Below the pieces are notes generated by a model. That model had not been told where the DNA came from and did not search any database. It saw only the letters and a list, made by a program, of their open reading frames with translations. Position numbers and translations under genes: made by a program. From positions 212,908,001-212,972,000 of the forward strand of contig OZ024740.1 in assembly GCA_964016885.1 (NCBI GenBank): 64,000 nt of DNA, given 5' to 3'. Positions 35,998-64,000 of the stretch are shown here, one piece after another. Within the stretch, counting starts at the first letter, position 1, and every line of letters begins with the position of its first letter. This DNA is from Eledone cirrhosa (taxonomy: Eukaryota).

Positions 35998-36312
35998 ATT
36001 GGTTTACATGTAATATATATTCGACCGACAGCTACAAACACACGCATCATCTCTGTTTTTCTTTTATCTATCTATCTATCTATCTTCTTTCTCTGGGATA
36101 GACACATGTGCTGAGCTCGCTCGGTAAGTTTCGTTTAAATTTATCTTTAAATTGTGAACTGTAAACTTTCATTTTTGTACCATTTTGTAGAGAGACTGCC
36201 AGGTCAAACTTTGATCTGGTCAGTCTCTCAAAATATTCTACGCCTTTAGGCGAAATAGTGTTGTAAAAATTTAATCTTTCGAAAAATTTCGAAAAATCCT
36301 ATTTTGATAAAA

Positions 36313-38112
36313 ATGGCTGAAGCATCTTCACCAAAATTCGAAGGAGGAAAGGGGAAGATAAGCTTACAGCTTACCCCTGCCACTGTCACAGTAGCAGAGG
36401 TCAAAAAGAAAGGTCAGCCAGAGGAAGGATTTTCTCCACCTGTTGACCGACAACTTGACGTTGCCATGGCAACAAACCAAAGAACCAGCGGCACCAGCAA
36501 CAGCAACAACAACAACAATGCGACGGACGAAAACAACACCAATAACAATAACAACAACAACAAGACCAATAACTGTGATAACAACAACAATGATAACAAC
36601 ACCACCAACTACAACAGCAACACAAACAAACAAAATTTTCTCCATCGCCGAGACGGCAAGGAAAACCCTCGACTATCTGCCAGTAGATATAACCAAAGCG
36701 AAGGAGCTACTGGCAGATGCCAAAAAATATATAGTGTACGGGGAAAATGGTTCATTCACGGTCCATTCCCCCCCCCCCCCCCCGGAACTAAAAAGCCAGA
36801 GACTCCTAAACACTGTCATGTTTAGGACAATCTCGAATAAAAGCAAAAATCCAGCTCAACCATCACAGAGTGAGATAGAGCTGGTTTTAAAAGACGTCAT
36901 GAAGGACATCACTTTCATTCAGAAGGATAGACTCTACGGGAGTCTATCCATTCTCATGAAGGACAGGGACACAGCAGTGAAACTGTCCATCAAACCAATC
37001 GCATCCACCGCATACACCTTCTACCCTACGTACATGGGTAGAAGAAGACAAAAAATAAAAATCCACACCATCCTGCCGATTATGGACATATGGTGGGTTT
37101 TGACAGGTTTCCTGGACCTGGATGATGACACGCTGGTGTCCATGGGAAAGGCATCGGGTGACGCGTTCAGTGGAACGACCCTCGAACTTGTAGTTCAAAT
37201 GAGGCCCGAAAGGATCGCCCAGATCCCTGAACGCGTCATACTGGATGATCAAACTTTCATCAACATTACCGTTGAGGGTAGGCGGCCCTCGTGTTACCTC
37301 TGCGGAACCAGAGGTCACCTGAGGGCTGTCTGTCCCCAACTTAATAAGAAAACCCCAATCCTGCCTACACCACCAACAACTGCAAAACCAACACAATCAC
37401 CACAACTACCACTACAAAAACAACCACCACAGCTCAAACCAAAACAAAACAATGTCCAACCCATCCCCCCCACTAAAAAAAAAATAATAATTTCCAAAAC
37501 ACCCGCACCGCAAACACAACCCGAAAATATACCCCTCCCTTCCAACGCGGAAGATGACCCTAGTTCGTCGTCAGACGAGAGGAGCACTTCCACACAATCA
37601 AAAGAAAAAAAAGAAAACACACCTCAGACACACAAATGAAAACAACCCCTCCCCAAAACATAACACTGACACCAACACAAAAGAGCTCACAACAACAGCA
37701 AACAAAAAACACCACACAAAAACAAAAACATGCATACACATACATAAACACAAGAAACAAAAAACTGTTAAACATTGTGTACAACAACAATCTAATAAAA
37801 ACCCAAGGGCCTAACTTCACCCAGGCAGGGGATTTCCCCCACCTCAAAATGATTAAGGCCCCACAGGACAACTATAAAACTTTAAAAAACAACTTTAAAG
37901 AGGACGTGGGTCCCCCCCTGCGTCGGGCCCATTAACCGCGTCCTCCTAGAAAACTACCCCACCCCTCCCCAAACACCCACACAACTCCAAACTCCCCAAC
38001 CACACAACACACTGATGCCCCTACACCTCCACAAACCACCACCCCACCCAACAACCCATACCCCACCCTAATGGAAATTGTGCAGCCCGATACCCGGGAC
38101 GCAGAGGGGTAA
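36313..38112 (+). pseudogene. Unit A ORF1 (gag-like, CCHC knuckle), frameshifted
   Basis: RRPSCYLCGTRGHLRAVCP. Pieces 36304-, 36443- and 37636-. Ends PDTRDAEG*. Confidence 0.88.
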
Positions 38113-38136
38113 GTGCCTTTTCTCTTCACCACCAAC

Positions 38137-41100
38137 ATGGCCATGCTAAGAGTAGGCTGTTTAAATGCGCGTGGCCTGGGCTCAACTTGGAAGCAAGCAA
38201 TGCTTCTAAATGACCTCAGGTCACAACGTATAGATGTGATGGTTATTTGCGAGGCCCGGATCAGCAACGTGCGACAGCTGGCCCCCACCTTTGATGACTT
38301 TGAGATGCACGCATCTCTCTGTCAGCCCGGAGGTGGGGGTGGGGTTGTCGTTCTGCTGCAAAAACATCTGGGTCTCACAACACAGATGGTACATTTGGAC
38401 CCGGAGGGTCGACTAGTGGTTCTGGACCTTGGCAGTGGTAAAGGCGGAGCGTTTAGGTTGGTAGCCGCCTACGGCCCTTTCGGGTCAATGCGGCCGGACT
38501 TCTTCCATCGTCTGGAGACTTTTCTAGGGACGTCCCGCTCCTTGCTATTAGTGGGGGACTGGAATGGTATCCTAGATGCACGCTGGGACTACGTAGGGGC
38601 CTGTCCCGATAGAGAGGGGTGTAATAGCCTCAAAGGGTTAATCGGTCGATTTGACCTGGCCGATAGATATCGACTAGATTTTCCGACTGCGTCAACCTGG
38701 ACTTGGGCAAATCGTAGCGGATCATCTAGGTCGTACCTAGATAGGTTCTTATTTAGAATTAAGGATAATGACTTTTTAAGTTGTCCAAAAATGCGCATGG
38801 TTGGCTATTCAGACCACAAGTTAGTGACCTGCATGGTCAACCTTGACAGAACTCATAGACAAGGACCCGGTTACGGGAAGCTCAACTTGTCCTTACCGGC
38901 AAGTAAGGCTTACAGGGACCGGATTAGCACTTTAGTTAAGGAGCGGTTGACGGGCGCCATCGTCAACAGCAGGTGGTGGGGATCTCTCAAAAGAGAGATT
39001 AGAGTAGTCTCTATAGAATTTAGTAAGGAGTTAGCCTCAAATAGAAATAGGAAGGAAAGGGAGTTGGTAGATAGTGTAGAAGAGGCAATTAGAAGCGGCG
39101 ACGTGGCCAGAGTGCTAGCGTCGAGAACGGCCCTGGGCCAGTTCTTCGACGCGAAACACGAAGGCTGCATCGTCCGAAGCAAAATACGTGCTCTGGGAAA
39201 CGAGGGGACCAAAGTTGTTAGCTGGGCCCGCGTGACAGAAGCCAAAAAGAGGGAGCAGATCCACTATCCGGTCTTTGCGAGACCAGGAAGGACGGGTGAT
39301 CCTTGAACCTAAGCAGATGTGCGAGGCTTTTCAAAAGCACTTTGCCGGATTGTTCGGAAGGGGCGGGGAGCCGGTTGGGGATGTGGACTTCGGTCCATAC
39401 CTCGACGGCCTGCCGCGTCTCTCGGACGGGGAGGCGAAGTCCTGCGAGGAGCCGATTTCAGCCGCTGAGATAGATGACATGCTGAGCCAATGCGGCAAAC
39501 GCAAATCCCCGGGTCTCGATGGTCTTCCATATGAACTATATCTAGCTATGCCGGACTTGTTCCCCGATCTCCTCGAGGCGGTCTACTGCAACTGGCAACA
39601 GAACGGGAGAATTCCCTGTGCTGTGACCAAGGGCGTAGTCACGCTAGTGAGGAAGGATGAGAACAAGGGGGACGATATAAATAATTTCAGGCCCATAACT
39701 CTGCTAAATACAGAGTTACAGATTTTGGCCAAGGTGCTAGCAAAGAGGTTGGCGCTTGTCGTGGGTAACCTGGTGAGAGATACGCAGACATACATGTGCT
39801 ATCCCGTCCAGGTCCATCCACGACAACCTCCACCTCATGCGATACATCATAGAGAGGGTTGGGAACGAACCCGGCTTTGGTGGGGCCCTGATCAACTTGG
39901 ATCAATCTAAGGCATTCGATAGGGTCGACCATGGTTACCTGGATGCGGTGCTAGCGGCGGCAGGCTTCGGACCCGTTTTCAGGGGCTGGATCCCTGCCAT
40001 GCACAGCAGCCGCATCTGCTCTAGGGTCAAGGTGAACGGCTACCTCTCGGAGCTGTTCGAAATCGCGCGGTCCATCCGACAGGGGTGCCCTCTCTCCTCC
40101 CTTCTGTATGTAATGACTCTAGAGCCACTGCTGCAGAAGTTGGAGTTGTTGCAGGGCATCCCGTTGGAATCGGGATTGCGGAAAGCGGTGTCAGCCTACG
40201 CCGATGACGTAACAGTAATGGTGTCGACGGCCTCGGAAATCGGGGCGATCGGCACCTTACTGGAGGAGTACGAAAGGTTTACAGGGGCTAAGCTGAACCG
40301 GGACAAGTCGATCGGTCTGCAACTCGGCACGTGGAGGGGCAGATCGATGCCCTCCGGTGGTGTCGTCGGGCGCTGGACGGAGGGCCCGGTGAAGTTGCTC
40401 GGGGTCTGGTTCGGACCAGCCCTCCAGGTGGAGAAGAACTGGGGTGAGGTAACGAACAGGGTGTTTGCACTGACCCAGAAGTGGGCCGAGTGCAAACTGT
40501 CCCTGAAAGGTCGGGCGGAGGTGGTGAACACTTATATAGTGTCCGTCATCTACTACTTCCTGACCGTTGTGCCTTGCCCAAGGGAAACGCTAGCCAAAAT
40601 GGAGCGCGCACTCTTCCAATTCCTTTGGAAGAAGCGGGCTCCTATGGTGAGGAGATCCATCTGCTGTCAACACCCTTCGAAAGGAGGGCTGGGGATGCCG
40701 TGGCTAATGATACGTAAACACGCATTAAGGCCACGGCACCTTCAGGTATTCCTCTCCGGTCAACCGGTGTGGGCCCCGTTTGTGAGGCGAGCCTTTCCCA
40801 GACTCGTCTCACTCACCGAGCTGCAATCCTGGGTCAAGCAAAGACCGAGAAAACTGGGCGCCTGGCACACCGAGTGTGCCCAGGCGCTCACGGCTCTCTG
40901 GCAGGCGGACCCGGCTGTCAGTGGAGAATCCACCTCGTCATTCTATAGAGGGCTGGTGGTTAGCAGGTGCGACGACGCCCTCGGAGAAGCCCTAGGCATG
41001 GAGGAAGACGAACTGGCCAACCTGTTCGGTAAGACATTCAGTCCGGGACCCATGGATAACTTCCAGAGGTCCCTGGCCTGGCAATGCTACAGAAGGGCTT

Positions 41101-41579
41101 TGCCCATTCGAGAAAGCCTCTACAGACACGGGCGCCCGGGTAGGGACCCCTCGAAAAAGATCTGTCCCAGATGCGTGTGCGACGAGGAAACCGTTGCACA
41201 CGCATTGGTACACTGCTCGGGCATTGCCGATCTGTGGGGCTATGTCGAACAACTGTTGTCAAGGGTGGGACCTATCCGGTTGACCACCGAGTCTATTGTA
41301 ACGATCAAGCCGTCTCCCCTCTTCAAAAACGAAGAAGAGGCGGTGTTTCTGTGCGTAATAGCCATGGCGAAAGAGGTTGTATGATGGACGCGTCTGAAAG
41401 GACTGAGGTCAGACACCTTTCTCTCTGGCCAACAACTGGTTCGTTTCTTCCGATATCATTTCGGAAGAAGGATCAGGATGGAGAGAGAGGTGCTCCACCC
41501 CAGCCGTTTTTATGAAAGATGGGTGAAAGTGGCGAGAATGGCCCGTGTGAATGGGCCTTCACTCTACATCAGACTATAG
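38137..41579 (+). pseudogene. Unit A ORF2 (APE-RT-Zn knuckle), disrupted
   Basis: CLNARGL, GDWN, YLDR, SDHK, QGCPLS, YADD and CPRC..ETVAHAL..C. Two frameshifts and a stop at 41382. Confidence 0.93.
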
Positions 41580-42116
41580 GTGAGGAAGATGAAAGACCAA
41601 GGGAGCACCCCTTCTCTGTGCTCCTGAGGAAAAGGGTTGCACACTCTTTTTCGGGGGTGTGTGCGACCCCCCAAGGTGCCTCCTCTCTATTGAGGATTTT
41701 GTTATTAATTTTATTCTGTTATATTTTATTTTATTTTTATATTTTGTTATTGCCTCCTCCTTATTGAGGACGCCTTGTTTTATAAACTCCCCCCATTGTA
41801 CTTGTCCCACTTTTGATGCCCTGGTGGCAAATAAAAGAAACATATCTATCTATCTATCTATCTATATAATCTAGCTGTCGTCTGTTCTACAGCGTAGAAG
41901 TAATTCACTTCGCGCAGAAGTTTTGTTCAAATTTATTGCGGAAATTTTTTAAGTTCAAATTTAATTTTGATACTTGTGTGTAGCTTGACCACCCCCCCCC
42001 CCCCCCCCCCGTCTTAACTGTCAGGCGGTTGGTCAGCTCATCTTTACCCCTCCTAGGGGTGAAAAACCTGTTTTTAAAAATTTTGTGGCAAAAAAAATTT
42101 CAATCGTCTGACAGAA

Positions 42117-44029
42117 ATGTTAAACGAAGCGAACGAAAATAGTGGTGGGGGGACAGCGGTAAGAGTTGTAAGCTCGCACGCTTTAGTCCCCCCCCCCTTC
42201 CTTCCCAACTAACGTCATAGAGAAGGAAGGAAAAAATAAAATAAAAACAGACGAATCTGCGGAGAAAAATGACGAAAACACAAATCTGGACATGGATTCC
42301 AACAACGAAAAAAAAAATTTGAAGAATTGCATGACAATATTAATACCACAAACAAAGACACAACAAACACAAAAATAACATTTGAAAACAACATCATAAC
42401 AGAAAGCAAAGCAGACGACAAAGTCAACACCAACAAGATTTCATTTGCACAAACAACAAAGAAATCTTTGACATATATACCTGAAAATATTTCAGATGTG
42501 GCACAAAGAATCACAGACGCCAAACAATACATAAGTGAAGGAGATAATGGTATTTTATCGGTAAAAATGCCTCAAGAACTCACCAAAGACATTGAAAGTC
42601 GAACGGTCGTGTTCCGCACCATCAACAACACTTCTAAAAAACCTGAACAGCCAACTCAAACAGATATCAAAACAGTACTCACAGAAGTACTTAATGAAAC
42701 CACTTTAATAAGAAAAGACAGACTGTATGGACGCCTAGCAATTATTATGAAGAACGAATCGGCGGCAAAAAATGTGCTTTGTCACCGATTCGTTCGAAAA
42801 ATTTTACCTTTTATCCATCTTATATGGGTAAAAGAACTCAACGCATATGGCTGGATGCAATGATGCCAGATGTGGACTACTGCTGGCTCATAGCTGGCTT
42901 CATCGATCCAGTGAATGACAACGTGATTTCCATTGGGAAAACCACAGGCAATGCGTTCAGTGGAACAGGTATAGAGCTGGTAGTGCAAATGAAGCCTGAA
43001 CGTATCGCCCAAATACCCGACAGAATCCTATTAGAGGGCCACGGGTATATAAACATTAGCGTGGAGGAGAGAAGGCCGTCCTGTCATATCTGTGCAGGCA
43101 GAGGGCACCTGAAGGCCGCTTGTCCCCAACTCAACAAAAAGAAAACCCTGCTACCAACACCAGCTCCACCACCACCACCACAACAGATAAACAAACAACA
43201 AAACTCAGTCCCACCCAACCCGTCCCTCAGTTAAACTACACCACCACCACAACACAAACAGTCACAACACATTACCCCAAAACAAAATACAGGCCCACCC
43301 AACCCCTCACTCAATAAAACAACACAACCACCGCAGCCACAACACACAACACAGTCTAACATAGTGACATCCATCTCCCCCACAAAGAAAACCAACACGG
43401 AAACATTACCAGCAAACATACCTCTTCCCTCCAACACTGAAGATAACCCAACGAATTCGGAGGAAGAAACGGAGTCCTTCAGACAGATTAAAAGGAAAAA
43501 AAGAAAACATGTGCAAAACACACAAGGCCAAACAACCCCCACCCAAATGTCAACACAATCCAACAAAACACAAAACACCCCTCCAGCAACAAACAAAACC
43601 AAACCTGCCCCTCCCCTCTTCGAAACACTCACACCATCCGAAAAAAAGACATTACACTATACTTACATCAACAGAAACAATAATAAATTAAATGAACTCA
43701 TAAACAATAATCCTTCGGTACAAACCGAAGGTGTAAACTTTGTTTCTTCAGAAAACTACCCACATTTAAAATTAATAAAGATCCCAATGAACCTCTACCA
43801 AAAACTAAAAAAGGATTTTAAGGAGGACGTAGGACCACCCTCTGTCAAACCCATAAACCGCGTCCTACTAAAAAGCTTTCCCCCTCCCCTTCCCCTCCCC
43901 AACACAACTCCAAACACCCCAACCCCACCACACACTGACGACCCCACACCACCACAAGACACCCCTTCACCCAACACCCCCGACCCCATGGAAGTCGTGC
44001 GACCCGAACCCCGGGAAGCAGAAAGGTAG
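42117..44029 (+). pseudogene. Unit B ORF1, disrupted
   Basis: RRPSCHICAGRGHLKAACP. Ends PEPREAER*. Confidence 0.88.
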
Positions 44030-44062
44030 GTCTCTACACTCTCCTTTGGCTCTGCCGCCCAC

Positions 44063-47000
44063 ATGGATGTGTTAAGAGTAGGATGTTTGAATGCACGTGG
44101 CCTGGGCTCAACTTGGAAGCAAGCAAAGCTTCTAAATGACCTCAGGTCATGTGGTATAAATGTAATGGTTATCTGTGAGACTCGGATCAGCGTCGTGCGG
44201 CAGCTGGCCCCTACCTTCGATGACTTTGAGGTGCATGCATCTCTCTGTCAACCTGGAGGTGGGGTGGGGTTGTCGTACTGCTGCAAAAACACCTGGGTCT
44301 TGCCGTACAGGTTGTGCACTCGGACCCGGAGGGTCGTTTGTTGGTGCTAGACGTTGGCAGTAGTGAAGGTGCGGCCTTGAGACTGGTCGCCGTCTACTCC
44401 CCTTTCGGAGCTGAACGGCCCGACTTCTTCCAGCGTTTGGAGACTTTTCTGGGAACGTCGCGTTCCCTGCTTCTAGCGGGGGATTGGAATGACATCCTAG
44501 ATGCACGTTGGGACTATGCAGGAGCATGTCCTAATAGAGGGGGGTGTAACAGCCTCAAGGGGTTACTCGACCGTTTTAACTTGGTCGATAGATATCGACT
44601 AGATTTTCCAACTGTGCCTACCTGGACTTGGAGAAACCACAGTGGTCAATCTAGATCGTACTTAGATAGATTCTTAGTTAGAAGTAAGGATAGGGACATA
44701 TTAAGCTGTCCAGAAATGCACACGGTTGGCTATACGGATCACAAATTAGTGACCTGCATAGTCAATCTCGAGAAAACACATAAACAGGGTCCCGGTTACT
44801 GGAAACTTAATTTGTCTTTACCGGCAAAAGAGACTTACAGAAACCGGATTAGCAGATTAGTTAAGGAGAGGTTGACGGGTGCAATCGTCAACAACCGATG
44901 GTGGGCATCTCTCAAAAGAGAGATTAGAACAGAATCAATAAGTTATAGCAAGATGTTAGCTGCCGATAGGAATAGAAACGAGAAAGAATTAACAGGTAAA
45001 TTAGAAGAGGCAATCAAGAGCGAAGATGTGGCCAGAGTTCTGGCATCGAGGACGGCCTTGAACCAGTTTTTCGATGCAAAGCACGAAGGCTGCGTCATTC
45101 GAAGTAAAATACGTGCTCTAGGTAATGAGGGGGCCAAAGCCGTTGGCTGGGCCTGCGTGACAGAAGCTAAGAGTGGAAATCGATCCACCATCCGGTCGTT
45201 GCAAGACGAGGATGGACGGGTGATCCGGGAGCCTAAGCAGATGTGCGAGGCCTTTCAAAGGCACTTTGCCCGATTATTCGGGGGAGGCGAGGGTCCGGGC
45301 GGGGTCGTGGATTTCGGTCCATACCTCGACGGCCTGCCGCGTCTCTCGAGCGAAGAGGCAGAGTCCTGCGAGGGACCAATCTCGGCTGATGAGATCGGAG
45401 ATGTGCTGAGCCAATGCAGCAGACGCAAATCTCCAGGTCTCGATGGTATACCTTACGAACTTTATTTAGCAATGCCGGTCTTCTTCTCCGAACTCCTCGA
45501 AGCGGTCTACTGCAATTGGCAGCAGAACGGGAGAATTCCTTGTTCTGTAGCCAAGGGCGTAGTCTCGCTGGTGAGGAAGGACGAGAACAAGGGGATAGTA
45601 TAAATAATTTTCGGCCCATAACCCTGCTAAACACAGAGTTAAAGATTTTGGCCAAGGTGTTAGCAAAGAGGTTGGCGCTTGTCGTGGGTGGCCTGGTGGG
45701 AGATGCGCAGACATGTGCTATCCCATCCAGGTCCATTCACGATAACCTCCACCTCATGCGATATATCATAGAGAGGGTTGGCAACAAACCCGGCTTCGGT
45801 GGGGCCCTGATCAACTTGGATCAGTCTAAGGCCTTCGATAGGGTCGACCATGGTTACCTGGATGCGGTGCTAACGGCGGCTGGGTTCGGTCCTGTTTTCA
45901 GAGGCTGGATCACTGCCTTACATAGCAACCACATCTGTTCTAGGATCAAGGTGAACGGCTACCTTTCGAAGCCGTTCGAAATCACACGATCCATTCGACA
46001 GGGGTGCCCTCTCTCCTCCCTTCTGTACGTATTGACTCTCGAGCCTTTACTGAGGAAGTTAGAGTTGTTGCAGGGTATCCCCCTGGAACCAGGATTGAGC
46101 AAAGCGGTGTCGGCCTACGCCGATGACGTAACAGTAATGGTATCGACCGACTCGGAAATCGAGGCGATCGGTACCTTACTGGAGGATTACGAAAGGTTGT
46201 CAGGAGCGAAACTGAACCGGGAAAAATCCATCGGGTTGCAACTCGGAACGTGGAGAGGCAGACCGATGCCTCCCGACGGTGTCGTCGGACACTGGACGGA
46301 GGGCCCGGTAAAGTTGCTTGCGGTCTGGTTTGGACCGGACCTCCAGGTGGAAAAGAACTGGGACGAGGTTACGAACAAGGTGTTTGCACTAACCCAGAAA
46401 TGGGCCAAGTGTAGGCTGTCCCTAAAAGGCCGGGCGGAGGTGGCGAACATTTACATAGCGTCCGTCACTTACTACCGCCTGACTGTCGTGCCTTGCCCTA
46501 AGGAAACACTCACCACCATGGAACGCATGCTCTTCCAATTTCTTTGGAAGAAGCGCACTCCTATGGTGAGAAGATCCATCTGCTGCCAACAACCTTCGAA
46601 AGGAGGGCTGGGGATGCCGTGGTTGATGATGCGTAGGCACGCATTAAGGCTACGGCACCTACAGGTATTCCTCACTGGTCAACCGGTGTGGGCTCCGTTC
46701 GTGAAACGAGCCTTTCCGAGACTCGTCTCGCTCACCGAGCTGCAGTCCTGGATCAAGCAAAGATCCGGAAAACTGGGAGACTGGCACACTGAGTGTGCTC
46801 AGGCGCTCAGGGCTCTCTGGCAAGCGGGCCAGGCCATCGGTGGAGAATCCACCTCATCATTCTATAGAGGGCTGGTGGCTAGCAGGGGCGATGACACCCT
46901 TGGAGAGTCGCTGGACATGGAAGAGGACGAACTGGCCAGACTGTTCGGTAGGACTTTCGGCCCGGGACCAATGGACAACTTCCAGAAGTCACTAGCCTGG

Positions 47001-47498
47001 CAGTGCTACCGGGGGGCTCTACCCGTTCGAGAGAGGCTCTACAGACACGGGCGCCCGGGCAGGGATCCCTCAAAAAAGATTTGCCCTAGATGCGTGCGTC
47101 ACGAAGAAACCGTTGCGCACGCATTGGTGCAATGTCCGGGCGTGGCTGATCTGTGGGGCTACGCCGAACGACTGCTGTCGCGGGTGGCGCCGATTCAATT
47201 GACCGCCGAGTCCGTGATGACAATCAAACCGCCTCCCCTCTTCACAAAGGAAGCAAAGAGGGTTTTTCTGTGCGTAATAGCCATGTTGAAAGAGGTTGTT
47301 TGGTGGACACGATTGAAAGGTCTGAGGTCAGGCAACTTCCTCTCTGGCCATAGTCTGGTCTACTTCTTCCGATATCACTTCGGAAGAAGGATAAGAATGG
47401 AGAGAGAGGTGCTTGGCCACAGGCAGTTTTATGAAAGGTGGGTGATAGTGGCGAGAATGGCTCGTGTAAATGGGCCTTCTCTGTATACCATCCTGTAG
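44063..47498 (+). pseudogene. Unit B ORF2, two frameshifts
   Basis: ORF pieces 44063-, 44314- and 45414-47498 with APE and RT motifs. Confidence 0.93.
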
Positions 47499-47712
47499 GT
47501 AAAAAAGTGAAGGAGAGGGGAGCACCTTCTCCATGTACTCCCCGGGCAAAGGATTGCACACTTTTTCGGGGGTGTGTGCAACCCCCATCACGTCCCCTCC
47601 CTTTTGAGGTTATTTTCGATTATTTTCATTTTATATCCTTTTTACTCGATTGCACGTAAACTCCCCCTTTGTATTTGTCCCTTCTTTTTATGCCTTTATG
47701 GTAAATAAAGAA

Positions 47713-47743
<31 letters not shown>

Positions 47744-47960
47744 AGACGTGTGTAACTTCGCGGAGAAGTTTCCGTTAATTTATGTAAGGAAAAAACGTGA
47801 GTTTTTAGTTCAATTTTATATCATTGTGTAACTTGACCACCCGTCTGGACCTTCAGGTGGTGGGTCAACTCATTTTCGCCCCTTCAGGGGCGGAATATCC
47901 ATTTAAAAAAATTTTCTCCATCGAATCTTGAAAAAAATATTGTAAAATTTTGATTACGTT

Positions 47961-49871
47961 ATGAACGCTGCGTCCAACGATAATGGTGGTGGAGAGGCGG
48001 TAAGACTACAAAGCTCGCAGTCAACAACGTCTTCTTCACTAGATACTATAGAGATGGAAAGACAAAATGAAAATAAAAAAAACGAATTCACATCCAAACA
48101 ACACAAATGACACCAAACAGCTCAATGACAACAAAAATAACAGCAAAACCAATAATGATGATAAAAGTAACAATGATAACAACAACAAAGAAAAAAATAA
48201 AGACAACGCCAATAACACCAGCATCAAAGACAACAACAACACCAAGGAAAATACGGATGATACCAACATCGGTGACAACAAGAATAACAACAACAATAAC
48301 AACAATAATGACAACACCACCAATACGGATTCCACAAAGAAACCAAAAAATCTCCTTTGCGGAGAAAGTTCAAAAGAAAGAACAATTGATACATCTCAAA
48401 TGCTGAACAACTTTTAAAGGACGCTAAGAGATATGTCACTTTCGAAAAAAATGGTGCTTTCAGCATCAATTCTCCGGTCGAAATTCGCAAGGAAACTGCT
48501 CTCAAAACGATAGTTTTTAGGACAGTTTCCAATTCTACCCGAAAACCAGTCCAATTGTCACAGAAAGATATTGAACTGGTTTTCAAAGATTCAATGAATG
48601 ATATTGCATTCATTCAAAGAAGCAAACTTTTTGGGAGTATTTCGGTACTGATGAAGGATCAATTGACGGCCCAAAATTACTCTGTGTCGCCAATTGTATC
48701 CAACCTGTACACCTTTTTCCCTACATACATGGGAAAAAGGACACAAAAGATCAGAATCACAAGTGTCACACCAAAGGTGAACATATGGTGGATACTGTGC
48801 GGCTTCATCAATTTTGATGAAGACAGAATACTGTCAGTAGGAAAGTCCCCCAGAGATGTATTCAATGGGACTAGCATTGAAGTTCTGGTGCAAATGAGCC
48901 CAGAGCGAATAGCTATGATCCCACAGCGTGTACTCCTGGACGGACTCACCTACATAAACCTTTCGGTTGAGGGTAGGCGGCCTTCATGTTACCATTGCTT
49001 TAGCAGGGGTCACCTGAGGGCTTCCTGTCCTAAACTAATGAACCAAAAAAAGGCTCTTCTGCCGACACCCATCAAAACAACACAACCACCAACACCACCA
49101 CAACAACAACAACACCAACACACAAAAATAACCACAACAAACACAGTCCCATCCAACCTCACTCCACCTAAAACCACTGCAAAATCACATACAGACACAA
49201 CAGCTCCCCAAGACATACCCCTCCCCAATCATACAGACGATACAACAGATGAGGCTATCTCGCCATCACCCAGTGAAGACGAGGGAGAACCCCATCGCTC
49301 GAAAAGAAAGAAAAGACATCACAAAAGCAAAAAACCAGCAAACACTACCACAAACATACAACCACCAACACAAACAACAAAAATATCACAAACAAAACCC
49401 CCACCTCCTGAAAACAAAATACCTACAACAAAACGAAAGCACACACAAGAACTACAGACAAAAACAAACACAACACAAGAAAATTACACTTACACTTACA
49501 TAAACACTGAAAACAAAACACAAATGGAGACCATCACGAACGACCCTTCGGTTTTCACCGAAGGGAAAACTTTCGCCCACTCTATTAAAAATAGCAAAAA
49601 ACTGAACCTAAAACTGATTAGGGTCCCTATACAAACTTATAGGTCCCTAAAAGAAACATTTGAGAAGGATGTGGGGAATTCCTGCGTGAAACCACTCAAC
49701 CGCGTCCTTCTCAAATGCCTCCCCACCCCAGACACCCCCATCCCACCAGACCCCACCCCACCAAACATCTGCGTCCCCACCCCGCCGGAAACTACCACCC
49801 ATCCAGACAACCCCTCCAACACCCCCATGGAAATCGTGCGGCCTGGTCCCCAGGAGGCGAAGGGTGAGTGA
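47961..49871 (+). pseudogene. Unit C ORF1, frameshifted in the N-terminal part
   Basis: RRPSCYHCFSRGHLRASCP. Ends PQEAKGE*. Confidence 0.88.
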
Positions 49872-49904
49872 TCTCTTTTCCTCTTTTAACTTTTCAGCAC
49901 CAAC

Positions 49905-52900
49905 ATGGCCAATATAAGAGTTGGATGTGTGAACGTACGCGGCCTGGGGATGCCCTGGAAACAGGGCAAACTCTTAAACGACCTCAGGTCGCACAGTTTG
50001 GATGTGGTAGCCATTTGCGATCCAGGATCCACGGCGAGCGACAGCTGGCCCCCATCTTCGATGACTTTGAGATCTATGCATCTCTCTGTCAACCGGGGGG
50101 TGGGAGCGGAGTTGCCGTTTTGCTGCGGAAACACCTGGGCCTCGTAACACAGACGGTACATCTGGACCCGGAGGGTCGACTGGTGGTCCTAGACGTTGAC
50201 GGTAGTGAAGGTGGAGCCTTCAGGCTGGTGGCCGCATATGCCCCATCCGGGACACCGCGGCCAGACTTCTTCAAACGTCTAGAGACTTTTCTGGGAACGT
50301 CCCGCTCCTTGCTTTTAGTGGGGGACTGGAATGGAATCCTAGATGCACGTTGGGACTATGTGGGAACATGTCCCGAAAAAGGGGGGTGTAACAGCCTCAA
50401 ACAGTTAATCGACCGATTTGACCTGGCCGATAGATATCGACTAGATTTTCCGACTGCGCCACTGTGGACGTGGAGTAATCGTAGCGGAACATCTAGATCG
50501 TACCTAGATAGGGTTCTAGTTAGAAATAAGGATAGGGACATGTTAAGCTGTCCACAAATGTTCATGGTTGCCTATTCAGATCACAAACTAGTGACCTGCA
50601 TGGCCAACCTTGATAGAAACCATAGACAAGGACCCGGCTACTGGAAGCTGAACTTGTCGTTACCGACAAGCAAAGCCTACAGTAGACGGATTAGCACATT
50701 AGTTAAACAGCACTTGACAGGGGCCATTGTCAACAACAAATGGTGGTACTCTCTCAAGAGGGCAGTTAGATTAGACTCGATAGTTTTTAGTAAAGAATTA
50801 GCGTTAGATAGAAATAGAACCGAGAAGGAACTGGTAGATAAAGTAGAAGAGGCAATTAGAAGTGGCAACGTAGCCAGCGTGCTAGCAACGAGAACGGCCT
50901 TGGACCAGTTCTTCGACGCAAAGCACGAGGGCTGCGTTGTCAGAAGCAAAATACGTGCTCTGGGAAACGAGGGAGCCAAAGCTGTTAGCTGGGCCCGAGT
51001 GATGGAGGCAAAAAGTGGCAACAATCCACGATTCGGTCTTTGAAGGACCAAAACGGACGCGTGATACGTGAGCCGAAGCAGATGTGTGCGGCTTTTCAGC
51101 GGCACTTTGCTCGGCTGTTCGGGGGGAGCGGCGCGCCGGGAGAGGCTATGCATTTTGGTCCATACCTCGACGGCCTACCGCGACTCTCGGACAGTGAGGC
51201 GAAGTTTTGCGAAAAGCCGATTTCAGCCACTGAGATAGGGGACGCGCTGAGCCAATGCGGCAAACGCAAATCTCCAGGTCTCGACGGTCTACCCTACGAA
51301 TTTTACGTAGCAATGCCGGACTTATTCTCCGGTCTCCTGGAAGCGGTCTACTGCAACTGGCAACAGAACGGGAGAATTCCCAGTTCTGTAACCGGGGGCG
51401 TGGTCACACTAATCAGGAAGGACGAGAATAAGGGGGATGACATAGGCAACTTCCGGCCCATAGCTCTGCTAAACACAGAGTTACAGATTTTGGCCAAGGT
51501 GTTGGCAAAGAGGCTGGCGCTTGTCGTCGAGAACCTGGTGGGAGAAGCGCAGACATGCGCGATCCCGACCAGGTCCATACACGACAACCTCCACCTCATG
51601 CGATACATCATAGAGAGGGTAGGGTGTAAACCCGGCTTCGGTGGGGCCCTGATCAACTTGGATCAGTCTAAGGCTTTCGATAGGGTTGACCATCGTTACC
51701 TGGATGCGGTGCTCGAGGCGGCAGGCTTCGGACCCTTGTTCAGGGGCTGGATTGCTGCAATGCACAACAGCAACATCTGCTCAAGGGTCAAGGTGAACGG
51801 TTACCTCTCGGAGCCGTTCCATATTATGCGATCCATTCGACAGGGATGCCCTCTCTCCTCCCTTCTGTAAGTACTGACTCTCGAGCCACTACTGCGGAAG
51901 CTGGAGCTATTGCAGGGCATCCCTCTGGAACCGGGACTGCGGAAAGCGGCGTCGGCCTACGCCGACGACGTGACAGTAATGGTGTCGATCGCCTCGCAAA
52001 TCGAGGAAGTCGGCACCTACTAAAGGAATACGAAAGTCTCACAGGAGCGAAGCTGAACCGGGACAAGTCCATCGGTTTGCAACTCGGATCGTGGAGAGGC
52101 AGACCGATGCCTTCCGATGGCGTCGTCGGACGCTGGACGGAAGGACCGGTAAAGCTGCTCGGGGTCTGGTTTGGTCCGGACCTCCAGGTGGAGAAGAACT
52201 GGAACGAAGTGACGGCCAAGGTATTTTCACTCACCCAGAAGTGGGCCGAGTGCAAACTATCCTTGAAAGGTCGAGCGGAGGTGGCGAACACTTTTATAGC
52301 GTCCGCCATCTACTACCGCTTGACCGTCGTGCCTTGTCCAGCCAAAACGCTCGCCAAAATGGAGCGCGCCCTCTTCCGATTCCTTTGGAAGAGGCGGGCT
52401 CCTTTGGTAAGAAGATCCATCTGCTGCCAACACCCTTCTAACGGAGGGCTGGGGATGCCGTGGTTGACGATGCGCAAACACGCGCTCAGACTGCGGCATC
52501 TCTACGTATTCCTCACCGGACAACCGGTGTGGGCCCCGTTCGTGAGGCGAGCCTTCCCACGAATCATCTCGCTGACCGAGCTGCAGTCCTGGGTCAAACA
52601 GAGACCGAGGAAAATGGGCGACTGGCACATCGAATGTGCTCAGGCGCTCACAGCCCTCTGGCAGGCGGACCCGGCGATCAGTGGAGACTCCACTTCGTCA
52701 TTCTATAGAGGGTTGGTCCGCAGAAAGTGCGACGACGCGCTCGGTGAAACTCTAGGCGTCGAGGAAGATGAACTGGCCAGTCTGTTCGGTAGGACCTTCC
52801 GCCCGGGACCGATGGACAACTTCCAAAAGTCCCTGGCCTGGCAGTGCTACCGAGGAGCTCTACCAGTTCGAGACAAGCTCTACAGACATGGGCGCCCGGG

Positions 52901-53339
52901 AAGGGACTCTGCAAAAAAGATCTGTCCGAGGTGCGTGCGAGACAAAGAAACCGTTGCGCACGCATTCATACACTGCCCGGGCGTCACTGACCTGTGGGGC
53001 TATGTAGAACGACTATTGTCGCCGGTGGGACCAATCCAGTTGACCACCGAGTCCATTGTCATGATCAAACCGCCACCCTCCTTCAAAAACGAAGGAGAGG
53101 CGGTTTTCCTTTGTGTGATAGCTATGGCGAAAGAGGTTGTATGGTGGACAAGGTTGAAAGGGCTGAGGTCAGACACCTTTCTCTCCGGCCAACAACTGAT
53201 TCTTTTTTTCAAATACCACTTTGGAAGAAGAATCAGGATGGAGAGAGAGGTGCTGTACCCCAGCAAGTTTTATGAAAGGTGGGTGAAAGTGGCGAGAATG
53301 GCCCGAGTGAATGGGCCTTCTCTCTATATCAGCCTGTAG
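49905..53339 (+). pseudogene. Unit C ORF2, disrupted
   Basis: APE/RT motifs, frameshifts near 50020, 51025 and 52015, and a stop at 51868. Confidence 0.93.
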
Positions 53340-53587
53340 GTTGAGGAAAAGGAGGAGGAGAGGAAAGGAGTACAAGCTCTTCGTACTCCTGGAGATGAGG
53401 GTTGCACATTTTTTTTCGGGGGTATGTGTTACCCATATAAACTGTCTCCCTCTATTGGGGAAAATCGACTAACTTTTAAATTCCATCTGTGATAACATTT
53501 TACACGTTTTTATTGTATGTAAACTTCCCCCTTTGTATTTGTCCCCTTCTTTTGTGCCCCTGTGGCTAATAAAGAAATATATCTATC

Positions 53588-56500
53588 AGACGTGTGTAAC
53601 TTCGCGGAGAAGTTTCCGTTAATTTATGTAAGAAAAAAACGTGAGTTTTTAGTTAAATTTTATATCATTGTGTAACTTGACCACCCGTCTGAACTTTCAG
53701 GTGGTGGGTCAACTCATTTTCGCCCCTATAGGGGCGGAATATCCATTTAAAAAATTTTTCTCCATCGAATCTTGGAAAAAATATTGTAAAATTTTGATTA
53801 CGTTATGAACGCTGCGTGCAACGATAATGGTGGTGGAGAGGCGGTAAGACTACAAAGCTCGCAGTCAACAACTTCTTCTTCACTAGATACTATAGAGATG
53901 GAAAGACAGAATGAAAATGTAAAAACGAATTCATATTCAAACAACACATATGACACCAAACAGTTCAATGACAACAAAAATAACAGCAACACCAATAATG
54001 ATGATAAAAGCAACAATGATAACAACAACAATAACAACAATAATGACAACACCACCAATACGGATTCCACAAAGAAACCAAAAATCTGCTTTGCAGAGAA
54101 AGTTCAAAAGAAGGAGAATTGATATATCGCGACATAACAAATGCTGAACAACTTTTAAAGGACGCTAAGAGATATGTCACTTTCGAAAAAAATGGTGCTT
54201 TCAGCATCAATTCTCCGGTAGAAATTCGCAAGGAAACTGCTCTCAAAACGATAGTTTTTAGGACAGTTTCCAATTCTACCCGAAAACCAGCCAATTGTCA
54301 CAGAAAGAAATTGAACTGGTTTTCAAAAATTCAATGAATGATATTGCATTCATTCAAAGAAGCAAACTTTTTGGGAGTATTTCGGTACTCATGAAGGATC
54401 AATTGACGGCCCAAAATTACTCTGTGTCGCCAATTGTATCCAACCTGTACACCTTTTTCCCTACATACATGGGAAAAAGGACACAAAAGATCAGAATCAC
54501 AAGTGTCACACCAAAGGTGAACATATGGTGGATACTGTGCGGCTTCATCAATTTTGATGAGGACAGAATACTGTCAGTAGGAAAGTCCCCCAGAGATGTA
54601 TTCAATGGGACCAGCATTGAAGTTCAGGTGCAAATGAGCCCGGAGCGAATAGCTATGATCCCACAGCGTGTACTCCTGGACGGACTCACCTACATAAACT
54701 TTTCGGTTGAGGATAGGCGGCCTTCATGTTACCATTAGTTTAGCAGGGGTCACCTGAGGGCTTCCTGTCCTAAATTAATGAACCAAAAAAAGGCTCTTCT
54801 GCCGACACCCATCAAAACAACACAACCATCAACACCACCACAACAACAACACCAACACACAAAAATAACCACAACAAACACAGTCCCACCCAACCCCACT
54901 CCACCTAAAACCACTGCCAAATCACATACAGACACAACAGCTCCCCAATCACACAGACGATACAACAGATGAGGCTATCTCGCCATCACCCAGTGAAGAC
55001 GGGGGAGAATCCCATCGCTCGAAAAGAAAGAAAAGACATCACAAAAGCAAAAAACCAGCAAACACTACCACAAACATACAACCACCAACAGAAACAACAA
55101 AAACATCACAAACAAAACCCCCACCTCCTGAAAACAAAATACCTACAACAAAACGAAAGCACACACAAGAACTACAGACAAAAACAAACACAACACAAAA
55201 AAATTACACTTACACTTACATAAACACTGAAAACAAAACACTAATGGAGACCATCACGAACGACCCTTCGGTTTTCACCGAAGGGAAAACTTTCGCCCAC
55301 TCTATTAAAAATAGCAAAAAACTGAACCTAAAACTGATTAGGGTCCCTATACAAACTTATAGGTCCCTAAAAGAAACATTTGAGAAGGATGTGGGGAATT
55401 CCTGCGTGAAACCACTCAACCGCGTCTTTCTCAAATGTCTCACCACCCCAGACACCCCCATCCCACCAGACCCCACCCCACCAAGCATCTGCGTCCCCAC
55501 CCCGCCGGAAACCACCACCCATCCAGACAACCCCTCCAACACCCCCATGGAAATCGTGCGGCCTGGTCCCCAGGAGACGAGGGGTGAGTGATCTCTTTTC
55601 CTCTTTTAACTTTTCCGCACCAACATGGCCAATATAAGAAATGGATGTGTGAACGTACGCGGCCTGGGGATGACCTGGAAACAGGGCAAACTCTTAAACG
55701 ACCTCAGGTCGCACAGTATGGATGTGGTAGCCATTTGCGAGTCCAGGATCCACGGCGAGCGACAGCTGGCCCCCATCTTGGATGACTTTGAGATCTACGC
55801 ATCTCTCTGTCAACCGGCGGTGGGGGCGGAGTTGCCGTTTTGCTGCGGAAACACCTGGGCCTCGTAACACAGACGGTACATCTGGACCCGGAGGGTCGAC
55901 TGGTGGTCCTAGATGTTGACGGTAGTGAAGGTGGAGCCTTCAGGCTGGTGGCTGCATATGCCCCATCCGGGACACCGCGGCCAGACTTCTTCAAACGTCT
56001 AGAGACTTTTCTGGGAACGTCCCGCTCCTTGCTTTTAGTGGGGGACTGGAATGGAATCCTAGATGCACGTTGGGACTATGTGGGAGCATGTCCCGATAAA
56101 GCGGGCTGTAACAGCCTCAAACAGTTAATCGACCGATTTGACCTGGCCGATAGATATCGACTAGATATTCCGACTGCGCCACTGTGGACGTGGAGTAATC
56201 GTAGCGGAACATCTAGATCGTACCTAGATAGGGTTCTAGTTAGAGATAAGGATAGGGACATGTTAAGCTGTCCACAAATGTTCATGGTTGCCTATTCAGA
56301 TCACAAACTAGTGACCTGCATGGCCAACCTTGATAGAAACCATAGACAAGGACCCGGCTACTGGAAGCTGAACTTGTCGTTACCGACAAGCAAAGCCTAC
56401 AGTAGACGGATTAGCACATTAGTTAAACAGCACTTGACAGGGGCCATTGTCAACAACAAATGGTGGTACTCTCTCAAGAGGGCAGTTAGATTAGACTCGA

Positions 56501-59307
56501 TAGTTTTTAGTAAAGAATTAGCGTTAGATAGAAATAGAACCGAGAAGGAACTGGTAGATAAAGTAGAAGAGGCAATTAGAAGTGGCAACGTAGCCAGCGT
56601 GCTAGCAACGAGAACGGCCTTGGACCAGTTCTTCGACGCAAAGCACGAGGGCTGCGTTGTCAGAAGCAAAATACGTGCTCTGGGAAACGAGGGAGCCAAA
56701 GCTGTTAGCTGGGCCCGAGTGATGGAGGCAAAAAGTGGCAACAATCCACGATTCGGTCTTTGAAGGACCAAAACGGACGCGTGATACGTGAGCCGAAGCA
56801 GATGTGTGCGGCTTTTCAGCGGCACTTTGCTCGGCTGTTCGGGGGGAGCGGCGCGCCGGGAGAGGCTATGCATTTTGGTCCATACCTCGACGGCCTACCG
56901 CGACTCTCGGACAGTGAGGCGAAGTTTTGCGAAAAGCCGATTTCAGCCACTGAGATAGGGGACGCGCTGAGCCAATGCGGCAAACGCAAATCTCCAGGTC
57001 TCGACGGTCTACCCTACGAATTTTACGTAGCAATGCCGGACTTATTCTCCGGTCTCCTGGAAGCGGTCTACTGCAACTGGCAACAGAACGGGAGAATTCC
57101 CAGTTCTGTAACTGGGGGCGTGGTCACACTAATCAGGAAGGACGAGAATAAGGGGGATGACATAGGCAACTTCCGGCCCATAGCTCTGCTAAACACAGAG
57201 TTACAGATTTTGGCCAAGGTGTTGGCAAAGAGGCTGGCGCTTGTCGTCGAGAACCTGGTGGGAGAAGCGCAGACATGCGCGATCCCGACCAGGTCCATAC
57301 ACGACAACCTCCACCTCATGCGATACATCATAGAGAGGGTAGGGTGTAAACCCGGCTTCGGTGGGGCCCTGATCAACTTGGATCAGTCTAAGGCTTTCGA
57401 TAGGGTTGACCATCGTTACCTGGATGCGGTGCTCGAGGCGGCAGGCTTCGGACCCTTGTTCAGGGGCTGGATTGCTGCAATGCACAACAGCAACATCTGC
57501 TCAAGGGTCAAGGTGAACGGTTACCTCTCGGAGCCGTTCCATATTATGCGATCCATTCGACAGGGATGCCCTCTCTCCTCCCTTCTGTAAGTACTGACTC
57601 TCGAGCCACTACTGCGGAAGCTGGAGCTATTGCAGGGCATCCCTCTGGAACCGGGACTGCGGAAAGCGGCGTCGGCCTACGCCGACGACGTGACAGTAAT
57701 GGTGTCGATCGCCTCGCAAATCGAGGAAGTCGGCACCTACTAAAGGAATACGAAAGTCTCACAGGAGCGAAGCTGAACCGGGACAAGTCCATCGGTTTGC
57801 AACTCGGATCGTGGAGAGGCAGACCGATGCCTTCCGATGGCGTCGTCGGACGCTGGACGGAAGGACCGGTAAAGCTGCTCGGGGTCTGGTTTGGTCCGGA
57901 CCTCCAGGTGGAGAAGAACTGGAACGAAGTGACGGCCAAGGTATTTTCACTCACCCAGAAGTGGGCCGAGTGCAAACTATCCTTGAAAGGTCGAGCGGAG
58001 GTGGCGAACACTTTTATAGCGTCCGCCATCTACTACCGCTTGACCGTCGTGCCTTGTCCAGCCAAAACGCTCGCCAAAATGGAGCGCGCCCTCTTCCGAT
58101 TCCTTTGGAAGAGGCGGGCTCCTTTGGTAAGAAGATCCATCTGCTGCCAACACCCTTCTAACGGAGGGCTGGGGATGCCGTGGTTGACGATGCGCAAACA
58201 CGCGCTCAGACTGCGGCATCTCTACGTATTCCTCACCGGACAACCGGTGTGGGCCCCGTTCGTGAGGCGAGCCTTCCCACGAATCATCTCGCTGACCGAG
58301 CTGCAGTCCTGGGTCAAACAGAGACCGAGGAAAATGGGCGACTGGCACATCGAATGTGCTCAGGCGCTCACAGCCCTCTGGCAGGCGGACCCGGCGATCA
58401 GTGGAGACTCCACTTCGTCATTCTATAGAGGGTTGGTCCGCAGAAAGTGCGACGACGCGCTCGGTGAAACTCTAGGCGTCGAGGAAGATGAACTGGCCAG
58501 TCTGTTCGGTAGGACCTTCCGCCCGGGACCGATGGACAACTTCCAAAAGTCCCTGGCCTGGCAGTGCTACCGAGGAGCTCTACCAGTTCGAGACAAGCTC
58601 TACAGACATGGGCGCCCGGGAAGGGACCCTGCAAAAAAGATCTGTCCGAGGTGCGTGCGAGACAAAGAAACCGTTGCGCACGCATTCATACACTGCCCGG
58701 GCGTCACTGACCTGTGGGGCTATGTAGAACGACTATTGTCGCCGGTGGGACCAATCCAGTTGACCACCGAGTCCATTGTCATGATCAAACCGCCACCCTC
58801 CTTCAAAAACGAAGGAGAGGCGGTTTTCCTTTGTGTGATAGCTATGGCGAAAGAGGTTGTATGGTGGACAAGGTTGAAAGGGCTGAGGTCAGACACCTTT
58901 CTCTCCGGCCAACAACTGATTCTTTTTTTCAAATACCACTTTGGAAGAAGAATCAGGATGGAGAGAGAGGTGCTGTACCCCAGCAAGTTTTATGAAAGGT
59001 GGGTGAAAGTGGCGAGAATGGCCCGAGTGAATGGGCCTTCTCTCTATATCAGCCTGTAGGTTGAGGAAAAGGAGGAGGAGAGGAAAGGAGTACAAGCTCT
59101 TCGTACTCCTGGAGATGAGGGTTGCACATTTTTTTTCGGGGGTATGTGTTACCCATATAAACTGTCTCCCTCTATTGGGGAAAATCGACTAACTTTTAAA
59201 TTCCATCTGTGATAACATTTTACACGTTTTTATTGTATGTAAACTTCCCCCTTTGTATTTGTCCCCTTCTTTTGTGCCCCTGTGGCTAATAAAGAAATAT
59301 ATCTATC
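53588..59307 (+). mobile_element. Tx1-like LINE array unit D (family C, chimeric), ORF1 53805-55591 and ORF2 55625-59059 both disrupted
   Basis: 5' half matches unit E and 3' half matches unit C, both at offset 5720. Confidence 0.95.
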
Positions 59308-62300: not shown

Positions 62301-64000
62301 AGTGGCAACGTAGCCAGCGTGCTAGCAATGAGAACGGCCTTGGACCAGTTCTTCGACGCAAAGCACGAGGGCTGCGTTGTCAGAAGCAAAATACGTGCTC
62401 TGGGAAACGAGGGAGCCAAAGCTGTTAGCTGGGCCCGAGTGACGGAGGCAAAAAGTGGCAACAAGTCCACGATTCGGTCTTTGAAGGACCAAAACGGACG
62501 CGTGATACTTGAGCCGAAGCAGATGTGTGCGGCTTTTCAGCGGCACTCTGCTCGGCTGTTCGGGGGGAGCGGCGCGCCGGGAGGGGCTATGGATTTCGGT
62601 CCATACCTCGACGGCCTACCGCGACTCTCGGACAGCGAGGCAAAGTTCTGCGAAAAGCCGATTTCAGTCACTGAGATAGGGGACGCGCTAAGCCAATGCG
62701 GCAAACGCAAATCTTCAGGTCTCGACGGTCTACCCTACGAATTTTACGTAGCAATGCCGGACTTATTCTCCGGTCTCCTGGAAGCGGTCTACTGCAACTA
62801 GCAACAGAACGGGAGAATTCCCAGTTCTGTAACCGGGGGCGTGGTCACACTAATCAGGAAGGACGAGAATAAGGGGGATGATATAGGCAACTTCCGGCCC
62901 ATAGCTCTGCTAAACACAGAGTTACAGATTTTGGCCAAGGTGTTGGCAAAGAGGCTGGCGCTTGTCGTCGAGAACCTGGTGGGAGAGGCGCAGACATGCG
63001 CAATCCCGACCAGGTCCATACACGACAACCTCCACCTCATGCGATACATCATAGAGAGGGTAGGGTGTAAACCCGGCTTCGGTGGGGCCCTGATCAACTT
63101 GGATCAGTCTAAGGCTTTCGATAGGGTAGACCATCGTTACCTGGATGCGGTGCTCGAGGCGGCAGGCTTCGGACACGTGTTCAGGGGCTGGATTGCTGCA
63201 ATGCACAACAGCAACATCTGCTCAAGGGTCAAGGTGAACGGCTACCTCTCGGAGAACGTTCCATATTACGCGATCCATTCGACAGGGATGCCCCCTCTCC
63301 TCCCTTCTGTACGTACTGACTATCGAGCCACTACTGCGGAAGCTGGAGCTATTGCAGGGCATCCATCTGGAACCGGGACTGCGGATAGCGGCGTCGGCCT
63401 ACGCCGACGACGTGACAGTAATGGTGTCGAGCGCCTCGCAAATCGAGGATGTCGGCACCTTACTGAAGGAATACGAAAGTCTTACAGGAGCGAAGCTGAA
63501 CCGGGACAAGTCCATCGGTTTGCAACTCGGATCGTGGAGAGGCAAACCGATGCCTTCCGATGGCGTCGTCGGACGCTGGACGGAAGGATCGGTAAAGCTG
63601 CTCGGGGTCTGGTTTGGTCCGGACCTCCAGGTGGAGAAGAACTGGAACGAAGTGACGGCCAAGGTCTTTGCACTCACCCAGAAGTGGGCCGAGTGCAAAC
63701 TATCCTTGAAAGGTCGAGCGGAGGTGGCGAACACTTTTATAGCGTCCGCCATCTACTACCGCTTGACCGTCGTGCCTTGTCCAGCCAAAACGCTCGCCAA
63801 AATGGAACGCGCGTTCTTCCGATTCCTTTGGAAGATTTGGAAGAGGCGGGCTCCTTTGGTGAGAAGATCCATCTGCTGCCAACACCCTTCTAACGGAGGG
63901 CTGGGGATGCCGTGGTTGACGATGCGCAAACACGCGCTCAGGCTGCGGCATCTCTACGTATTCCTCACCGGACAACCGGTGTGGGCCCCGTTCGTGAGGC
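59308..64000 (+). mobile_element. Tx1-like LINE array unit E (family C), truncated by the window end
   Basis: ORF1 59525-61311 and ORF2 from 61345, with its own lesions after ~62.3 kb. Confidence 0.95.

Follow-up and report, generated by a model that had tools for sequence, protein, structure and literature searches.

The 64,000-nucleotide stretch of Eledone cirrhosa DNA analyzed here (contig OZ024740.1, positions 212,908,001 to 212,972,000 of the forward strand; hereafter the window) carries from 36.1 kb onward head-to-tail copies of long interspersed nuclear elements (LINEs), designated A, B, C, D and E, with (ATCT)n between neighbours. At the stop of the first of their two open reading frames (ORF1 and ORF2) lies a motif that is strongly supported, by its conservation among related elements, as a real consensus 5' splice site under selection. 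Recruitment of the U1 small nuclear ribonucleoprotein (U1 snRNP) by this donor is likely, and removal of ORF2 by splicing to its own terminal TAG is plausible but unproven.

Conservation of the donor at the end of ORF1

To pair ORF1 ends with ORF2 ends, 92 stretches were fetched, 80 of them picked for variety from the first 100 places listed by ORF1-end, donor and ORF2-start patterns and 12 taken from other pattern matches. Including four window copies, both ends were present in 80 copies and 69 were near full length. After exclusion of the chimeras L194 and L243, the remaining 67 near-full-length copies fell into 22 families, ten of which consist of one copy each, while a 23rd family (U266), a single internally deleted copy, was left off the tree. 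The representative family pairs checked were 68-91% identical in ORF2, and the comparison of conservation at the DNA level covers this one genome.

Genome-wide, G/GTRRGT (the slash marks the predicted junction) was found at the expected distance after 3119 of 3425 ORF1-end motifs. Across the 22 families, the donor was invariant at -1G, +1G, +2T and +5G (22/22 each) and nearly so at +6T (21/22) and -2A (20/22). Parsimony on the tree required 0-2 steps at positions -2, -1, +1, +2, +5 and +6 compared to 3-12 steps at -15 to -3 and +7 to +30, in an ungapped count in which indels inflate the values at neighbouring positions; as a neutral reference, 17 of 91 four-fold ORF2 sites had 0 steps. The ORF1 C-termini surrounding the donor were barely alignable between families, and the motif was kept when the stop codon changed, in either of two reading phases (K, K2, N, R and C have phase 1, all other families phase 2) and across an apparent 42-nt duplication in J. 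Among the GT sites of an element, the ORF1-end donor ranked first in J (315 sites) and in K (287 sites) and shared first place among three sites in C and B, while the mutated donor of the window copy of A tied with 12 other GT sites. Two weaker donor-like sites, common to 17 and 16 families, are located within the coding sequence of ORF2.

The original prediction, made from the letters of the window alone, had placed donors at 38109, 44026, 49864, 55584 and 61304 (G/GTGAGT at the last three), and every position and motif proved correct. That these sites exceed chance is borne out by the genome-wide count together with the invariant core over 22 families, a conservation deeper than could be seen from the window.

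Ten of 150 ORF1 relatives were read, and five of the nine reaching the C-terminal region (one from Argonauta hians) had a near-end Gly-Lys or Gly-Glu, as a phase-1 donor would encode; these proteins, known without their DNA, are leads only. Two ORF1 C-terminal fragments from Logan contigs (P0116 and P0118) end in EG and EVE rather than EGK, which is what phase-1 spliced products might give, again a lead from protein only. Evasion of HUSH as the reason for the donor was considered and rejected, since protection is described as not needing the 5' splice site (PMC8770142).

Identity of the elements and their arrangement in the window

The elements are members of a large L1/Tx1-group clade of LINEs with an apurinic/apyrimidinic endonuclease (APE). 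A pattern for the ORF2 N-terminus had 12,301 matches across the 3.0-Gb genome (control 0), and intact relatives are present elsewhere in the genome in families J and K (ORF1 of 698 and 636 amino acids, ORF2 of 1139 amino acids). The intact J and K ORF2 proteins contain PF03372, PF00078 and PF13966 (APE endonuclease, reverse transcriptase (RT) and zf-RVT) with ORF1 being separate, and the closest PDB protein to ORF2 was human L1 ORF2p (E 5e-57). Membership among Penelope-like elements was excluded, because those have a single ORF with RT and GIY-YIG endonuclease, whereas the present elements are APE-type with two ORFs. AATAAA is present at the 3' ends of the elements, and the 8566 matches to an ORF2-end motif compared to 3425 for the ORF1-end motif, although the patterns are not identical, indicate an excess of 3' ends (5' truncation). 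By eye and without a count, the flanks in the copies read were (ATCT)n for A-E and (ATT)n for J, K, N and R. Such short-tandem-repeat flanks are as expected of microsatellite-targeting Tx1 elements (PMC4494074), of which the present LINEs are candidate members.

ORF1 had no relevant Pfam match; CX2CX4HX4C was visible in all three aligned ORF1s, and Atlas neighbours of ORF1 at 0.90-0.92 bear zf-CCHC or a ZCCHC3-type RBD. A homologue search with the ORF1 of C gave no match, and none of five intact J/K proteins was present in the protein collection searched. Named relatives of the window proteins came from Argonauta hians, Octopus sinensis and O. bimaculoides. Two further relatives (P0004 and P0012) are labelled Herbaspirillum sp. 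and derive from a 1.8-kb contig; with P0004 being 59% identical to ORF2, animal LINE contamination of a bacterial bin is likely. Every copy of family Q that was read (L225, L229, L250-L253 and L270) has ATA at the position of the ORF2 ATG, possibly a non-AUG start or a family with lowered ORF2 translation. The excluded chimera L194 joins a J-type ORF1 to a K-type 3' end and has an open frame of 1162 codons, and L243 joins an N-type ORF1 to a J-type 3' end.

The features of the array, which include segments in the 5' untranslated region (5'UTR) discussed below, are as follows.

36093..41842, + strand: element A, full-length, decayed, ends approximate, (ATCT)n flanks
36124..36190, + strand: 5'UTR intron-like segment of A, 67 nt, GT-AG (GTAAGT ... 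T-rich tract TAG)
38109..38114, + strand: donor of A, GG/GTAAGT, overlapping the ORF1 stop, phase 2
38137..41579, + strand: ORF2 of A (APE endonuclease, RT; frameshifted), final TAG as candidate acceptor, other AG 7 nt upstream
41866..47712, + strand: element B, full-length, decayed, ends approximate
44026..44031, + strand: donor of B, AG/GTAGGT, overlapping the ORF1 stop, phase 2
44063..47498, + strand: ORF2 of B, end TAG/GTAA, without an AG at -7
47744..53577, + strand: element C, full-length, decayed, ends approximate
47797..47856, + strand: 5'UTR intron-like segment of C, 60 nt, GT-AG
49864..49869, + strand: donor of C, G/GTGAGT, phase 1, 1 nt deleted compared with its sisters, families H and I
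49905..53339, + strand: ORF2 of C, end TAG/GTTGA, CAG 7 nt upstream
53587..59297, + strand: element D, tandem near-identical copy of C (5'UTR segment 53641-53700, donor 55584, ORF2 end 59059)
59307..64000, + strand: element E, third C-type copy, exceeding the window (5'UTR segment 59361-59420, donor 61304)

All five copies A-E are frameshifted and decayed, and the donor-to-acceptor spans in the window were 3471-3476 nt. Two further elements of the same array follow past the window end, so that in total (window 36093-64000 plus L206:1-9970) it comprises seven elements of four families (A, B, four C-type and P) with short (ATCT)n joints. In tandem arrays of this kind, the 5'UTR donor lies roughly 50-130 nt 3' of the AATAAA of the preceding element, where U1 could influence the use of that AATAAA.

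An intron-like segment in the 5'UTR

A GT-AG intron-like segment was found in 11 of 15 5'UTR types, compared to 2.2 expected from dinucleotide shuffles and one on the reverse strand; the rule was fixed after the sequences had been seen, and several of the types are related (about 6 of 9 independent). In its layout, a GTRAGT-like donor 20-85 nt from the 5' end is followed, mostly 58-68 nt on, by a YAG with a pyrimidine tract. The 5'UTRs are largely unalignable between families. By the same rule, J, K and N had a donor without an acceptor and R had neither, while the segments of Q and S contain CTAAC branch-point-like motifs recognized by eye. No intron-sized gap was found in the 5'UTR matches among the fetched loci, and the segment was kept in every copy seen. 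This segment is the main reason to suppose that the RNA encounters the spliceosome and that the template for copying is unspliced; together with the donor whose core is invariant in 22 families, its presence in most of the 5'UTR types makes use of the host splicing machinery likely.

Predicted removal of ORF2 by partial splicing

We give close to an even chance to a reading in which some transcripts are spliced to an mRNA for ORF1 alone, while transposition is confined to unspliced RNA. U1 snRNP would be recruited to the 5' splice site at the ORF1 end, and ORF2 would be removed from part of the transcripts, giving an mRNA that presumably has three exons (a short leader, 5'UTR plus ORF1, and 3'UTR). 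The acceptor may be weak and loosely chosen: either the TAG that stops ORF2 or an AG located 7 nt upstream of it, while in J a strong AG that lies 177 nt into the 3'UTR may serve. The ORF1 C-terminus would not need to be regenerated exactly. ORF2p would bind in cis, and exclusively, the unspliced RNA from which it is translated, so that both introns would survive copying. It is also possible, as a tentative view of the clade at large, that these LINEs have the layout of a three-exon gene for ORF1, with a 5'UTR intron and a second intron enclosing ORF2, the fully spliced RNA providing ORF1p and the unspliced RNA providing ORF2p and the copies.

Consistent with a junction at the end of ORF2, this frame terminated in TAG in 21 of the 23 families. 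In 15 of the 16 families of the A-E clade this TAG ranked 1-5 among 243-280 AGs, with acceptor and intron scores being ad hoc simple rules that were fixed after the sequences were seen. The window stops TAG/G ending at 41579, 47498, 53339 and 59059 had been placed correctly by the original prediction, as had the TAG/GTAA retained in a separate B copy at 17.5 kb (minus strand, stop ending at 17513), and joining donors and acceptors in silico in the window produced the stops that it described. All five phase-1 families have a stop in the donor frame at most two codons away. Among 34 paired copies, TAG/GTTGA was present in nine of the ten with a phase-1 donor, but also in nine with a phase-2 donor; the latter belong to H and I, sister families of C that have the same 3' end but a phase-2 donor.

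The AG 7 nt upstream of the ORF2 end, which the original prediction had listed as a caveat for A and C, does matter. Combined with a phase-2 donor it leads into the ORF2 frame and hence to ORF2's own stop, and it was found at -7 in eight of the nine A-E-clade families that mismatch through the TAG; K, K2, N, R, B and Q are without this AG and all match through the TAG. If this AG is also counted, a prompt stop follows in 19 of the 23 families, though in C its use would add a tail of 35-48 codons. The pattern fits a loose selection for a prompt stop, with the qualification that C, J, J2 and U266 obey no single stop-frame rule and that the families are not independent. On the tree, a stop in the phase-1 frame, as seen in K, K2, N, R, J, J2, P, I and H, represents the older condition. 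The A-E clade moved to phase 2 with this stop unchanged at first, the stop later shifted in the branch comprising M, F, G, B, Q and A, and C reverted to phase 1, while O, S, U111, U112, U118 and U272 have no such stop. Because A and B share a phase-2 state inherited within one clade, the window holds one informative phase event (C).

Several observations weigh against the removal of ORF2 by splicing, and a spliced junction was not seen in any RNA. Compensation between donor phase and the downstream stop, which the original prediction had proposed, had to be rejected as a general rule, as a stop within two codons through the TAG was present in 11 families and missing in the 12 others; moreover, the phase-1-frame stop appears to be largely inherited, because J, J2, P, I, H and U266 still have it despite their phase-2 donors. 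The TAG changed once on the tree, which is within the neutral range given that 14 of 31 two-fold purine sites changed at most once, it ranked just 9-27 in K, K2, N, R and U266 by the ad hoc score, and in the young, intact branch formed by J and J2 the ORF2 stop is TAA. The pyrimidine tract exceeded a synonymous-codon-resampling null (P<0.05) in one of 23 families and is accounted for by the protein residues N-G-P-S-L-Y-I-S-L, and no branch point at the ORF2 end was obvious by eye, with no formal scan having been run. The proposal that ORF2 is an intron is strongly supported in its donor and weaker in its acceptor, where TAG conservation is no more than neutral, the tract is accounted for by the protein, and J and J2 are without the TAG.

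Spliced copies were also missing from the DNA, whereas human L1 leaves spliced retrocopies (PMC5860796). Three genome-wide patterns in which the ORF1 end is directly followed by the 3'UTR gave 0, 0 and 3 matches, none of the three being spliced (a gapped-pattern positive control gave 3119 matches); the genome pattern searches thus contained 0 of the ORF1-only, HAL1-like copies that the original prediction had expected splicing to seed, and this seeding was rejected. Likewise, a genome-wide pattern for the spliced 5'UTR form of A/O gave 0 matches, with A/O 5' ends not counted genome-wide, and GT-AG ends were found in none of 22 internal deletions. A preference of ORF2p for acting in cis is established for L1. 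Since an ORF1-only RNA makes no ORF2p, this preference renders the lack of spliced DNA copies weak evidence against splicing. Assembled contigs from four of six runs (X4, X1, X5 and X6) compared with 36200-53590 had no donor-acceptor joint among the 15 of 282 joints listed; the X4 and X5 contigs listed cross the B acceptor unspliced and one X5 contig crosses the C acceptor, which is uninformative on splicing because the kind of these contigs is unrecorded.

Some families have features of their own at this end. J, J2 and U266 have an AG ranked first or second in the 3'UTR, at a depth of 159-177 nt; in J, the most acceptor-like site 3' of the donor (L191:6440-6470) is at +177 from the ORF2 stop and, if used, would by hand reading add about 20 codons to ORF1. 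In family I (L263, L123 and L129), a splice at the TAG would give ORF1 a basic tail resembling a nuclear localisation signal.

Alternative explanations for the conserved donor

The absence of spliced DNA copies would be accounted for if U1 binds the ORF1-end site and this site is rarely or never joined to an acceptor, thereby blocking premature cleavage and polyadenylation or keeping the 5.8-kb RNA full length, with the AG of the ORF2 stop being incidental. We regard this as a serious though somewhat doubtful possibility, which is compatible with partial splicing and does not exclude it. The donor alone is conserved beyond neutral, J keeps it without the TAG, and U1 is reported to counteract early termination of the unspliced EVD RNA (PMC5580714). 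AATAAA/ATTAAA hexamers in the A-rich ORF1 are candidate sites of such premature processing; in J, K, C and B, hexamers precede the ORF2 ATG by 111-382 nt, and ORF2 has 0-1. Such a role leaves unexplained why all five phase-1 and six phase-2 families have a matching stop frame, why the TAG ranks high in the A-E clade and why the 5'UTR contains complete GT-AG segments.

A function unrelated to U1 appears improbable. The motif always coincides with the stop of ORF1, preceding the start of ORF2 by 25-47 nt, and could serve termination-reinitiation from ORF1 to ORF2 across a pyrimidine spacer of this length, or be partly a by-product of Arg/Gly-Lys and stop codons, as the stop does give some of its letters. 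However, the donor positions that pair with U1 are established, and it is these that are conserved, including the non-coding +5G and +6T in phase 2; they persist when the stop leaves the register (C, K, N and R) or switches between TAA, TAG and TGA. Splicing of the donor to outside acceptors, either in the 5'UTR of the next tandem element or in downstream host exons, is highly improbable, even though head-to-tail arrays are common (seven elements here and others elsewhere in the genome) and each 5'UTR has a strong acceptor, since dispersed copies are without such a partner and selection would have to act through variable flanks.

Comparison with known systems

Kibi and Koshi are Tx1-clade LINEs with microsatellite targets (PMC4494074), and the elements described here share with them two ORFs, an APE-RT-zinc-finger ORF2 and insertion in short tandem repeats. 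The repeat units differ, being (ATCT)n and (ATT)n here, and membership of the present elements in the Tx1 clade is putative. The approximately 3-kb intron of Drosophila copia and the spliced GAG RNA of the plant Ty1/Copia element EVD (PMC5580714) resemble the predicted arrangement in that a conserved donor closes the ORF of the structural protein, a long intron spans the enzymatic ORF, and U1 may guard the full-length RNA. Those are long terminal repeat elements with one gag-pol ORF from which splicing frees Gag, whereas ORF1 of the present LINEs has its own stop and splicing is predicted. Penelope of Drosophila virilis has an intron of 75 bp, at 46 bp from its start, which is removed from the RNA yet retained in genomic copies (PMC2377424). 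The short segment described above is similarly kept in genomic copies, mostly at 58-68 nt and 20-85 nt from the 5' end; Penelope-like elements, with a single ORF and GIY-YIG, are a separate class, while here the elements are APE LINEs with a putative intron.

Splice donors and acceptors on LINE RNA are shared with human L1, whose known splices (SpIREs and SpORF2) begin within the 5'UTR and eliminate 5'UTR or ORF1 sequence (PMC5860796, PMC2896524); the present donor sits at the stop of ORF1, its use would excise ORF2, and retrocopies were not found. HAL1 (PMC5753468) is what would be expected if ORF1-only RNA were copied, and the three pattern searches revealed none in this genome. The literature on splicing in LINE, Tx1 and non-LTR elements, as covered (Repbase and most subscription journals being outside this coverage), contained neither a conserved donor at the ORF1 stop nor a retained 5'UTR intron in an APE LINE, while TART splice sites also turned up there.

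The usual explanation for the large excess of ORF1p over ORF2p from one bicistronic LINE RNA is inefficient translation of ORF2 (PMC3894237), and intron retention through transposition has been described as a trait that distinguishes Penelope-like from non-LTR elements (PMC2377424). Both views are challenged by a conserved U1 site between ORF1 and ORF2 together with the 5'UTR segment, in a clade with more than 12,000 near-full-length copies, whether the donor acts through partial splicing or through U1 binding without joining. If true, partial splicing would constitute a retrovirus- or copia-style system of genomic and subgenomic RNA in a non-LTR element and a case of spliceosomal introns kept through retrotransposition in an APE LINE. 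RNA-seq counts of such LINEs may then exceed the true amount of transposition-competent RNA.

Other features of the window

Outside the array, the window contains the separate copy of B and two diverged members of the (ATT)n-flanked branch.

17293..19006, - strand: B copy, 5'-truncated, TAG/GTAA kept
3005..3070, - strand: 5'UTR intron-like segment, 66 nt, in a diverged element of the (ATT)n-flanked branch that has an internal deletion

Positions 1-3090 (minus strand) are a diverged member of the (ATT)n branch with a deletion from ORF1 into ORF2. In a second diverged member of this branch at 4690-5370 (minus strand), the ORF2 TAG precedes ATTGGAGG, and none of the frames reaches a stop within several codons. 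A Penelope-like element, with a direct repeat of about 285 nt on either side, occupies 24992-28575, where a 579-aa ORF with RT and GIY-YIG lies behind a 449-aa ORF in near-continuous reading.

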